Below are positions 52,344-55,964 of a stretch of 64,000 nucleotides of DNA, piece by piece. The stretch spans positions 125,426,001-125,490,000 of the forward strand of contig OZ024741.1 in NCBI GenBank assembly GCA_964016885.1. The letters are read 5' to 3'. Source of the stretch: Eledone cirrhosa (lineage: Eukaryota). The notes below the pieces were generated by a model. It made no database searches. It was not told the origin of the DNA and saw only the letters and a list, made by a program, of their open reading frames with translations. Both the position numbers and the translations under genes were made by a program. Each line of letters opens with the position of its first letter. The stretch's first letter is position 1.

Positions 52344-52664
52344 AATATTAATAAATGGAAAATATCTTTATAAAACCATATTTATTTTATTATACGTATT
52401 TCAAGGGTACTAATATTTAAGTACGCTTTCGTCAGATAAAATACAATATTTGGTGTAAAGATAGTGACATATCTTCATGTGAACTTAATGGTATAAGTCC
52501 AGTGAGGATACTTATACCATTAAGTTCACATGAAGATATGTCATTATCTTCACACCAAATATGGTATTTGATCTGACGAAAGCGTACTTAAATATTAGTA
52601 CCCTTGAAATACGTATAATAAAATAAATATGGTTTTATAAAGATATTTTCCATTTATTAATATT
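52344..52664. mobile_element. Palindromic double-hammerhead element, 155-bp arms
   Basis: Arms 52344-52498 / 52510-52664. Plus HHR at 52565-52625: TATTTGAT-CTGACGA-(AAGCGTACT..AGTACCCTT)-GAA-ATACGTAT-A-ATAAAATA; minus HHR at 52383-52443. Confidence 0.88.
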
Positions 52665-53120
52665 AATTGTTTCTACTTTTGGCACAAGGCCAGCAATTAC
52701 CCCAGTGCATTACTGGTACTTTATTTTATCGACCCCGTAAGGATGAAAGGCAAAGTTAACCTCGGCAGGATTTGAACTCAGATAAGAAAGGGGCGTAACT
52801 CTGTGCTGCAAGGCATGTTGTCCGACCCTCTACCGATACTGCCAAACCACCGCCCTAAATAATATTATTAATATTAATGATACTCCAGATAAATATTGTA
52901 GAGTGCTTCTATGCTGTTATAAAATTAACCTTGTTGAATGATCAACAAACCATATAACTTATTGTTTACATATATATATACATATATATATATATATATA
53001 TATATATATATATATATATATATATATATATATATATATATATATATATATATATATATATATATATATATATATATATATATATATATATATATATATA
53101 TATATATATATATATATATA

Positions 53121-54200
53121 TAAACTGATGTGCGTGCGTGCCCTCATTTTTGCAAAGTCTATACAAACCCACATTTCTACTCCGATTGACTTCAAACTTG
53201 CATGTATATATTCCTTGCGGTCTAAAGATATTAACTGCAGCTTTTATTTTTCAATTTTCTGTTGTTAAAGGGGTGTTAGGCGCCGGTTATCCATCTCTGT
53301 CGCGCTCTTATAATATCTGTCTGTATGCCTGCTGTCTGCATTACGACATTCTGACGAACAATGATGACGTATTATGTTCGCTATTATCCGTTCATTGCCA
53401 GAGAACATCTTCACGAACCAAAGTATCGTCTTCCTGTTTTCCTTCGGTTGCAAAGTTTTTCGAAATATTTACTTCTGCGTTCACAGATTGATGTTTTTAG
53501 TTTCAGAAGATCCCGTTAATAGTGAACACAACGATTCTTTGCTTAAACTTTAATCTGTTATTTTAATCTTTATATATATAAAACTGAGAAAGGATGTATG
53601 TATGTGTGTATGTGTGAAACCCGAGAAGTACCCAACCGATCTTTTTCAAACTTTGCATGTGTATTACTTATATTTCAGGCAGTGTTATGCACATTAAAAA
53701 AATTCAACTTTTTGATCCCCTAGGTGAAAATTTGATCCATTAGGTGAAAAACTGCATTTTTTCCAGCTTTTTAGGTTTTTTTTTTGGGGGGGGGGGGGGG
53801 GCATTACGTCAGACCGATTTCCTTGAAATTGTAACTATGTATTAGTCAGTCTCTTTTTCATACCGTTAGCAAAGAAAGTCCAACTTAGGTGAAAAACATT
53901 TTTTTTTTTTTCAGATTTTTAGGGCTTTTTTGGGGCGTTACGTCTAGCCGATTTTCCCGAATTTCAAGGCATATTATGCACATAAAAAAAATTCATTTTC
54001 TTGATCCTCTAGGGCCCGCATTAGGTGAAAACCTGCCTTTTTCCTGCTTCATCGAGGAAAATCTTAGATTATCGAGCCATCCGAGTATTCGGTTTATTTT
54101 CTTTGCATATTGTCCAGGCATGCATTTTTTCCCCGATTAGGTCTGTTGGCTCGCGTTCCAAAATACATTATCCCGTGCAACGCCGGGTACCACCGCTAAT
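53121..54200 (+). mobile_element. Composite non-autonomous Helitron carrying a captured hammerhead/pLTR segment
   Basis: Two Helitron-like 5' modules (ATATATAAAACTGA + TG-rich tract) at ~53121 and ~53567; 3' hairpin CCCGTGCAACGCCGGG followed by CTAAT (CTRR); 53365-53567 is homologous to 47715-47915. Confidence 0.72.
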
Positions 54201-54594
54201 ATATATATATATATATATATATATATATATATATATATATATATATATAGGTGTGTGAGAAAAGTAACGTGGCTTAGTGTGTTGTGTGAACTATGAGTGG
54301 GGCAGGGATTGACGTGTGTGTCACCGTGTGACGTAATATCCGGGGAGTATATAACTGCGATCTCAGCTCTCACCAGCCATTGTATGACGACGCAGCTGTG
54401 GAGAATCCTGGGAGAGTCCTTCGAAGTGTGCATGTAGGCATGGCGGAGAAGAATGGGAAAGTGCGTTAGAATCGAGGGGGATTATTCCGAAGATGAAAAC
54501 TTGTGGTTTGTAGTTTGGAATATATATATAAATATTCATTTTGCGACACACACACACACGTGTGTGTGTGTGTGTGTGTGTGTACTGTATATAT

Positions 54595-55387
54595 ATACAA
54601 TTGAATATATGAGAGGGATGAACACCGATACAAGTATACATGTGTTCGAATTGTAAATGACCAAGTTAGCTAGGTTGAAAAATACCAATTTAAAATAATT
54701 GTTTCTACTTTTGGCACAAGGCCAGCAATTATCCCAGTGCATTACTGGTACTTTATTTTATCGACCCCGTAAGGATGACAGGCAAAGTTAACCTCGGCGG
54801 GATTTGAACTCAGAATGGCATTTAAAATAATATGGTTAGCCTGTCTCGATTTAAAGTGATAAATCAATAAAAATAACAAACCTATATTGGGCAATCGCCG
54901 TTTGATACCCGGACAGATCCTAAATCTGTTTCGCAACAATTATTAAGTGAAAGTCACTACCCCTGTGCTCTTCTGCGAGTTCCGTACGTAGAGCTAACTT
55001 TAGTCCCATAAAACCGGCTGCTATTTTTAGCGGCACGAGTACGAGACGCGTTAGGGGCTGTGACATGTGCGTTCAACAACACATAGTTTTCAGTCTCTTA
55101 AATCTTTTGAAGTGAAAGGTACGAATTTCCTGGATACCCGCAGAAGAGCACAGGGGTAGTGACTTTCACTTAATAATTGTTGCGAAACAGATTTAGGATC
55201 TGTCCGGGTATCAAACGGCCATTGCCCAATATAGGTTTGTTATTTTTATTGATTTATCACTTTAAATCGAGACAGGCTAACCATATTATTTTAAATTGGT
55301 ATTTTTCAACCTAGCTTACTTGGTCATTTACAATTCGAACACAGGTATACTTGTATCGGTGTTCATCCCTCATATATTCATTTGTAT
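54595..55387. mobile_element. Inverted-repeat double-hammerhead element (CAGAAGA core), left arm interrupted by a SINE
   Basis: Arms ~54595-54977 / 55139-55387. Plus HHR at 55133-55212: GATACCCG-CAGAAGA-stem II-GAA-ACAGAT..ATCTGT-C-CGGGTATC. SINE at 54700-54819 with 12-bp TSD ATTTAAAATAAT. Confidence 0.85.
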
Positions 55388-55576
55388 TACACGGCTCGGA
55401 AATATTCCCTTCTTTGAGCTATTTAATTGTAAAAGAGTATTTTCAGTTTATAACTCAATATATGATTGATATATATATATATATATATATATATATATAT
55501 ATATATATATATATATATATATATATATATATATATATATATATATATATATATATATATATATATATATATATAT

Positions 55577-55964
55577 ATAAGAGGAATTCCAACTTTGTCT
55601 GATTTACTCGTTTTATTTACAATCCTTTAAAATTTATAATGGTATTATAATGAAAAAGTATGATAGAATATTAAATTCTAAGTGTTAATTGAACAAGTAC
55701 TTTCATGCTTTCGCAATCTTCAGGTTCATATTATGTGGTGACAGTCAAGTTTGCAATTTTCAACTGAAAATTCACAGTTGAAAATTGCAAACTTGACTGT
55801 CACCACATAATATGAACCTGAAGATTGCGAAAGCATGAAAGTACTTGTTCAATTAACACTTAGAATTTAATATTCTATCATACTATTTCATTATAATACC
55901 ATTATAAATTTTAAAGGATTGTAAATAAAACGAGTAAATCAGATAAAGTTGGAATTCCTCTTAT
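55577..55964. mobile_element. Palindromic double-hammerhead element, 190-bp arms
   Basis: Arms 55577-55766 / 55775-55964. Plus HHR at 55813-55851: TGAAC-CTGAAGA-TTGC-GAAA-GCAT-GAA-AGTACT-T-GTTCA; minus HHR at 55690-55728. Confidence 0.88.

Follow-up and report, generated by a model that had tools for sequence, protein, structure and literature searches.

Palindromic hammerhead-bearing repeats at an Eledone cirrhosa locus as probable short insertions of Penelope-like elements

Within 3.6 kb of the genome of the octopus Eledone cirrhosa lie three long inverted repeats, termed here E1, E2 and E3, each of which carries one outward-reading hammerhead ribozyme motif per strand. They are part of a 64,000-nucleotide stretch (assembly GCA_964016885.1, contig OZ024741.1, positions 125,426,001 to 125,490,000 of the forward strand), which is referred to as the window and in which all positions are counted from its first letter. 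The question raised by this locus is whether such palindromes belong to a new class of RNA element, as was implied by the original prediction, which had framed them as ‘ambisense' and viroid-like, or whether they are a form of a known mobile element. We propose, with a probability of about 0.86, that E1-E3 represent the shortest form of Penelope-like element (PLE) insertion, in which two truncated hammerhead-bearing ends are joined head to head. Such palindromic stumps are most likely the known inverted form of PLE insertion, and ordinary for the class. It should be emphasized, however, that PLE membership of E1-E3 falls short of proof because there is no linked coding parent.

Anatomy of the palindromes and their hammerhead motifs

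The arms pair at 152 of 156 positions in E1 (52343-52498 / 52510-52665), 247 of 252 in E2 (54595-54980 / 55136-55387) and 193 of 197 in E3 (about 55570-55766 / 55775-55971), and thus differ at 4, 5 and 4 positions; the spacers between them are 11, 155 and 8 nt, respectively. The three are mutually unrelated (shuffle p 0.23-0.93) outside a repeat that we take to be a short interspersed element (SINE), the strand of its copy at 52668-52864 being likewise our assumption. No long open frame runs through arm and tail in E1-E3, or in the first of three further palindrome families in the window (A, B and C; Table 1), and no tRNA gene was found by ARAGORN. The original prediction delimited the arms correctly but not the element ends. 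In each of E1, E2 and E3, unique sequence followed by (TA)n lies past the right arm only; this overlooked tail extends the elements to about 52968, 55469 and 56007, respectively. The tail of E1 has been pushed away from its arm by the SINE-type repeat, which is also inserted in E2, where it had gone unmentioned; both insertions are at AT-rich spots and are flanked by 12-14-bp target duplications.

A scan for type I hammerheads identified 12 distinct cores on the two strands of the window, compared with a mean of 0.075 (maximum 1) in 40 Markov-3 simulations. The descriptor had been loosened after a strict version missed E2 and E3, and the count is therefore partly fitted, its margin over the simulations being somewhat flattered but large; the strict descriptor returned 3 cores against a null mean of 0.025, and missed E2, E3, A and C. 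Ten of the 12 cores form five outward-reading pairs (E1, E2, E3, and those at 24.7 kb and 46.6-47.9 kb), which agrees with the earlier claim of three unrelated inverted repeats with one outward-reading motif per strand. The scan also reproduced all four of the cleavage sites proposed at the outset (after 52617, 55204, 55846 and 24818) and predicted mirror sites at 52391, 54912, 55695 and 24727; in E1-E3 the predicted sites lie 48-183 nt upstream of the arm ends. The two remaining motifs, at 19311-19349 and 45778-45832, are both on the minus strand without an inverted partner, and are likely to be one-armed stumps of further families.

When considered in isolation, the motifs of E3 and of the right arm of E2 have the hammerhead as their minimum-energy structure, that of the left arm of E1 nearly so, while those of the right arm of E1 and the left arm of E2 do not. 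In E1 and E3 stem III comprises one pair under a palindromic loop, a form reported to need dimers (PMC4209133). A palindromic loop III, a 5-bp stem I and an additional base where stem II begins are features of the motif shapes that agree with the PLE hammerheads of the same source. E2 has a stable stem III and the core CAGAAGA in place of the canonical CUGANGA; its left motif is truncated within stem I. This core, together with a long stable stem III, is common to the unrelated E2 and family C (55141-55147, 47854-47860, 46623-46629 and 53501-53510), and the single motif at 19349 (minus) has the core CCGAAGA; judged by sequence, both may be natural variants at position 4. The eight hammerhead motifs gave a poor MAFFT alignment because their helix lengths differ. 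Rfam returned no hammerhead family among the best 150 of 402 rows for the window, nor for E2 alone, and its microRNA matches, which score below gathering cut-offs, were rejected as microsatellite or hairpin noise. The E3 hammerhead stretch had 0 matches in metagenomes.

It could be argued that the palindromes are miniature inverted-repeat transposable elements (MITEs) or foldback DNA transposons that target TA microsatellites, and that the hammerhead-like motifs arose by chance. They are indeed non-coding and present in many copies, with near-perfect inverted arms and (TA)n flanks, and TA-targeting Mutator-like elements exist (PMC4486113). The motifs, however, occur far above chance and read outward in five of the five called pairs. 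Symmetric fixed termini of the kind expected of a DNA transposon are absent: a tail is present on one side, E3 reads reveal two 3' ends, the centre varies, and a coding retroelement in the window has the same build. We therefore find this explanation scarcely credible; the MITE label that the original prediction expected of a repeat annotator would be wrong, and palindromic PLE stumps are easily misfiled in this way.

Insertion form and origin of the centre

PLE insertions are reported to contain an inverted 5'-truncated copy and a 30-40-bp tail at one end, with a bias towards microsatellites (Craig et al. 2021, PMC8557442), and palindromes have been described at their head-to-head junction (Arkhipova et al. 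2013, PMC3846280). At the present locus an inverted 5'-truncated copy is likewise placed head to head, the arms reading outward in E1-E3, A and C, and the terminal repeat has a type I hammerhead motif that precedes the 3' ends. The tail is on one end only, as seen in the E3 reads and in independent copies of families A (2 of 2) and B (2 of 3), and as deduced from single copies of E1 and E2. Truncation at the 5' end is variable in A, B and the E3 family, which runs on upstream. Finally, (TA)n adjoins at least one side of all 10 elements examined and both sides of 7, simple repeat making up about 16 kb, or about a quarter, of the window. E1-E3 differ from the published insertions in that the body between the arms is 0-155 nt, the whole insertion being a hairpin, and in tails of 36-90 rather than 30-40 nt. 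The original prediction had named the inverted pseudo-long terminal repeats of truncated Penelope copies as a known relative, but not the one-sided tail or the (TA)n targets.

A coding PLE at 25-28 kb serves as a control within the window. Its plan of tail, arm, body and inverted tail-less arm is that of E1-E3; it is 5'-truncated, with an open frame of 767 aa encoding reverse transcriptase (RT) and GIY-YIG domains, a 193-bp inverted arm and a 49-nt tail, and its palindrome is paired at 229 of 232 positions, flanking microsatellite included. The GIY-YIG match (E 2.4e-4) is just under the Pfam cut-off; 336 homologues of the protein were found, and many of the best 120 of these contain both domains. 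Its cysteine-rich linker presumably places it in the Nematis or Neptune type.

There is a precedent for the paired motifs in Schistosoma mansoni, where dual minimal hammerheads on opposite strands, ~100-700 bp apart, were ascribed to truncated PLEs (Cervera and de la Pena 2014, PMC4209133). Like those of E1 and E3, the schistosome motifs have a palindromic loop III and low expected activity as monomers. In the available part of that source, however, they occupy one sentence without anatomy, and the combination of a CAGAAGA core and stable stem III seen in E2 and C is not described for animals. Searches of the literature, outside subscription journals, Repbase and Dfam, found no account of palindromic hammerhead-bearing PLE stumps in octopus, and the supplements of PMC4209133 and PMC8557442 may list octopus hammerheads.

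If the palindromes propagated themselves, copies of one family would share a fold-back point, whereas palindromes formed at each insertion would differ in it, a distinction set out in the original prediction. The right half of E3 (55767-56008) was compared with four sequencing runs, from at most three samples and two studies; runs X1 and X3 are one sample, which may be the source of the assembly. Runs X4-X20 contain small shares, and none of the runs listed is of RNA. Each run contained 2,070-2,468 matching records and there were several common sequence variants, and the family is thus multi-copy, depth itself giving no copy number. Contig depth in X1 (X3 was alike) rose from 20,328 in the centre bin (55767-75) to 215,240 one bin further on and peaked at 850,600, the corresponding raw-read depths in X21 being 13.8, 210 and ~900; two of the nine positions in the centre bin belong to the arm and may explain most of the depth recorded there. 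Contigs that run upstream of 55774 (at least 19 and at least 20) do so with a different sequence that they hold in common. At the other end, the family stops behind 55971 (at least 31 and at least 23 contigs) or behind 56007 (at least 17 and at least 22 contigs, at least 330 and at least 287 raw reads), in both cases followed by (TA)n. The two 3' ends are 36-39 bases apart, and the tail between them has roughly one third of the peak contig depth. Piles of read ends at 55783, 55854, 55907 and 55953-55956 were rejected as library cuts, since they coincide with AATT sites, in libraries in which 92-93% of placed reads run on into unlike sequence.

Thus, as the E3 centre is not family-wide and centres differ among the copies of A and among those of B, the palindrome is likely to be made anew at each insertion and not to be a self-copying viroid-like RNA or a MITE. 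In A and B no two copies have a common centre (0 of 4 pairs), the two A copies differing by 9 nt and the B copies by 9 and 14 nt from the longest of the three. That these displacements are so small is one of the observations that would suit an alternative in which the palindromes are self-propagating RNA elements that replicate in full as viroid- or retrozyme-like rods and whose intermediates are processed by the hammerheads of both polarities. Another is that, among the variants listed, common ones affect 0 of 39 positions in the E3 hammerhead and 13 of 158 outside it (one-sided Fisher p 0.051), which gives mild support to conservation of the motif. These 13 common variants came from the best 40 of 58 rows, variants below about 10%, in a single read direction, at cut sites or in the tail having been dropped. 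For E3, however, whole copying is largely refuted by the different upstream sequence into which the other copies continue; it also fits poorly with the asymmetry of E2, in which the left motif is cut in stem I, and with family B, which has only half a hammerhead. We consider self-propagation very improbable, a view strengthened by the predicted folds discussed below.

How PLEs make inverted copies is left open in the available literature. Purified PLE protein, in work on Poseidon of Anolis (Frangieh et al. 2024, PMC11167929), cleaves AT-rich DNA on both strands in vitro and extends each of them, with ribozyme cleavage being dispensable, and starts reverse transcription at two neighbouring RNA sites downstream of the hammerhead, the gap between which defines the tail. 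Extending this scheme to E1-E3, a PLE protein from elsewhere would nick both strands of an AT-rich (TA)n target, and reverse transcription from each nick would start at one of the two neighbouring sites in the element RNA, the distance between them becoming the one-sided tail. Both complementary DNAs (cDNAs) would stop early, about 0-160 nt upstream of the hammerhead core, and their ends would be joined with the aid of short hairpins or a templated insert, giving arm, centre, arm and tail with a new centre each time. The joining into a palindrome is our inference and goes beyond Frangieh et al.; an equal alternative for this step is that one cDNA would self-prime on a hairpin, as proposed elsewhere (PMC3846280). 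The hammerhead would simply be inherited from the terminal repeat of the parent.

Breakpoints are at or inside the hammerhead in two copies of A, three of B and the left arm of E2, and several centres resemble, by eye, small hairpins or templated inserts. Together, these observations suggest that helices in the RNA act as stop or annealing points. This would be a tendency and not a rule, because E1, E3 and C break farther upstream, at least 43 nt from the core. The same clustering of breakpoints could reflect short PLE RNAs that are non-autonomous and begin at a fixed point near the hammerhead, some subfamilies being re-mobilised with the inverted arm and the palindrome sometimes inherited; indeed, a PLE protein would find the signals that it needs on the tail-bearing strand of a palindrome. 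A fixed start, however, does not explain E1, E3 and C, and predicts a boundary that the E3 reads lack, since raw-read depth across 55812-55803 passes from 910 to 867 without a step and 5' ends do not pile up at the hammerhead edge. Inheritance, in turn, is at odds with the absence of a common centre in A and B, and RT would need to unwind a perfect duplex of 150-250 bp. This mixed scheme is improbable. Short young insertions that display both ends and the centre in one read would make a good natural data set for the formation of inverted copies by PLEs.

Several observations weigh against the interpretation of E1-E3 as PLE insertions with newly made palindromes. E1, E2 and E3 bear no likeness to the single coding PLE in the window, and the scan found no canonical hammerhead in the terminal repeat of that element. 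Tails of 82-90 nt in E1 and E2 (~90 and 82, each from one copy), 63-66 in A, 77 in B and 49 in the coding element exceed the published 30-40 nt, and target duplications are unreadable inside (TA)n flanks. The read test covers E3 only, with short contigs and with raw libraries whose AATT cut sites lie 16 nt from the centre, and does not give the share of copies that are palindromic. Part of the drop in depth at the E3 centre can be an edge effect, as the bin at the opposite edge of the stretch falls to 52% (contigs) and 81% (raw reads). A strand-change joint was absent among the E3 matches listed, which is uninformative given the short contigs and AATT cuts. Differences of only 9-14 nt between A or B centres could also stem from deletions at the centre of an inherited palindrome.

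Fold-back artefacts of assembly or library preparation also need to be considered, as no read or contig spans the stretch used for the comparison, the junctions of this locus are not seen in reads, and the window contains an N gap beside one member of a 2.4-kb inverted pair that is 99.96% identical. E1-E3 are unlikely to be artefacts, however, because their arms differ, one arm of E2 alone was later interrupted by an insertion that left a target duplication, and several families share the build, including decayed palindromes (55/61, 52/61 and 42/52 paired) and tails common to separate loci. We give this explanation practically no weight.

Predicted folding and double-stranded RNA

Read-through transcripts of the palindromes are predicted to form rods of -225 to -502 kcal/mol in which the hammerhead core has a pairing probability of 0.999-1.0 and would cost 71-107 kcal/mol to open. 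These models support the earlier suggestion that each hammerhead is masked by its antisense copy, and the ribozyme is predicted to be silent in a read-through transcript unless transcription starts at the centre. Perfect rods with a motif on each strand are also features that favour self-propagation. In a viroid-like ambisense RNA the genome is circular or of unit length, both polarities contain a ribozyme and the unit is conserved. Here, however, one strand carries one cut site, and thus neither a circle nor an RNA of unit length can be released; within the rod all of the core is paired, terminal redundancy is lacking and the repeat is one of genomic DNA. The two hammerheads of each element are one motif duplicated in inverted form and, with a centre that is not conserved, the ‘ambisense viroid-like' framing and the new class that it implied are not supported. 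The non-LTR (long terminal repeat) retrozymes of animals are, like E1-E3, non-coding with a type I hammerhead, and have a proposed PLE origin, but release circles and are organized as direct tandem arrays of 150-450 bp (PMC7229834; bioRxiv 10.64898/2026.07.22.740005), whereas E1-E3 are single inverted pairs with one motif per strand and no tandem copy.

The present-day effect of the stumps, if any, is likely to be the production of long double-stranded RNA, and the proposal that they would provide substrates of the ADAR or Dicer type if transcribed is supported by the predicted rods. Near-perfect duplex was defined as ungapped, with 39 of 40 positions paired and the partner within 2 kb, a measure similar to that of Porath et al. 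It comprised 5,630 bases of the window, of which 3,344 were simple repeat and 2,286 non-simple; the palindromic stumps hold 1,837 of the latter 2,286. As the window was picked for its palindromes, this fraction is no estimate for the genome, and microsatellites outweigh the stumps. Octopus and frog have an exceptionally high potential for near-perfect double-stranded RNA, a repeat cause being named for the frog only in the available part of the report (Porath et al. 2017, PMC5625713), and Penelope is among the families expanded in coleoids (PMC8967140). The palindromic Harbinger elements of Xenopus tropicalis are, similarly, self-folding repeats of ~200-400 bp that give double-stranded RNA without a neighbour, but they are DNA transposons with a palindromic consensus and demonstrated editing (PMC5625713), whereas the stumps are retroelement-derived, variable at the centre and known here from DNA alone. 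It is tempting, though doubtful, to suppose that, microsatellites aside, the long near-perfect double-stranded RNA of octopus genomes comes mainly from fold-back Penelope stumps, these being the missing counterpart of frog Harbinger for hyper-editing, and that the centres of the stumps record two-ended priming with hammerhead helices as stop or joining points. The share of duplex held by the stumps may serve as a lead only for octopus hyper-editing.

Other palindromes, the coding element and neighbouring sequence

Table 1. Positions of the palindromes, their parts and the coding Penelope-like element in the window
Feature	Position	Strand	Remarks
E1 left arm, tail-less inverted copy, type I hammerhead motif	52343..52498	-	C3 at 52435; predicted cut after 52391; palindromic 6-nt loop III
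E1 centre, 11 nt, junction of two 5'-truncated copies	52499..52509	no strand	
E1 right arm, hammerhead motif	52510..~52667	+	C3 at 52573; predicted cut after 52617
SINE-type repeat, later insertion between E1 arm and tail	52668..52864	-	14-bp target duplication 52654-52667 / 52865-52878
E1 one-sided tail (inferred), ~90 nt, then (TA)n	52879..52968	+	single copy; element membership inferred
E2 left arm, without a tail, truncated within hammerhead stem I	54595..54980	-	C3 at 54975; predicted cut after 54912
SINE-type insertion in E2 left arm only	54700-54819		132 bp with 12-bp target duplication 54688-54699 / 54820-54831
E2 spacer, 155 nt, further 5' sequence of the longer (right) copy	54981..55135	+	provides full 8-bp stem I
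E2 right arm, hammerhead motif	55136..55387	+	core CAGAAGA at 55141; stable stem III; predicted cut after 55204
E2 one-sided tail (inferred), 82 nt, then (TA)n	55388..55469	+	single copy
E3 left arm, tail-less, minimal hammerhead motif	about 55570..55766	-	C3 at 55723; predicted cut after 55695; palindromic 4-nt loop III
E3 centre, 8 nt	55767..55774	no strand	not common to family (read depth drop, other upstream sequence in other copies)
E3 right arm, minimal hammerhead motif	55775..55971	+	C3 at 55818; predicted cut after 55846; first family 3' end at 55971
E3 tail, 36 nt at this locus and 39 nt in many copies	55972..56007	+	second family 3' end at 56007, then (TA)n
Family A, copy 1	24636..24846	-	tail 24636-24698; arms 24699-24770 / 24775-24846; hammerhead motif per strand
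Family A, copy 2, decayed	44598..44788	+	arms 44598-44658 / 44662-44722; tail 44723-44788 as in copy 1, but centre shorter by 9 nt
Family B copy	48000..48200	-	tail 48000-48076; arms 48077-48137 / 48140-48200
Family B copy	49894..50081	+	arms 49894-49948 / 49950-50004; tail 50005-50081 as in 48-kb copy, but centre shorter by 9 nt
Family B copy, decayed, lacking a clear tail	about 2345..2458	+	centre 14 nt shorter than 48-kb copy
Family C	46561..47921	no strand	arms of 262 bp around an 836-bp spacer that includes a partial tandem copy; on each strand a hammerhead motif with the core CAGAAGA
Coding Penelope-like element, in-window control	25074..28409	-	tail 25074-25122; arm 25123-25315; RT + GIY-YIG frame 25910-28216; inverted tail-less arm 28217-28409; (TA)n both sides

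The original prediction had recognized the same design at three other places. This holds for 24699-24846 (family A) and for 46561-47921 (family C, with the CAGAAGA core), but not for the second copy of family A, where the palindrome 44598-44722 is decayed, with 55 of 61 positions paired, and no hammerhead was called by the scan. In family B only the 3' half of the hammerhead is kept (GAAA, stem III and the cut triplet, read by eye), and each of the three copies folds back within stem II at a point of its own.

Two tandem non-coding elements, at 53125-54200 (between E1 and E2) and 60990-61640, are presumably Helitron-like. The first unit of this element ends in ~185 bp that are 86% similar to the family C arm and include a decayed hammerhead. 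A near-perfect 87-bp inverted pair (37672-37758 / 38233-38319) lies within a partial direct repeat (37639-37778 / 38016-38158), and no hammerhead was called in it. Two short inverted repeats, 46375-46533 and 45671-45752, have a (TA)n run at the centre instead of outside.

In the coding PLE a hammerhead-like stretch near 25301 (minus), 14 nt inside the start point of the inverted arm, was considered and is not claimed, as its core does not fit. The 2.4-kb element mentioned above occurs at 8720-11106 and, inverted, at 21582-23968, the second copy lying beside the N gap; the pair is either a very young insertion or an assembly duplication. It encodes endonuclease and RT domains and a PHD finger, with a 1,085-aa frame at 7553-10810, and we take it to be a long interspersed element of the RTE type. 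The first coding exon of an SLC12A3-like transporter is at 40231-41253 (minus), its one match, 58% identical, being a named Octopus vulgaris protein. The palindrome cluster at 44-56 kb is 3-15 kb upstream of this exon, and is possibly in the 5' intron or promoter region of the gene.

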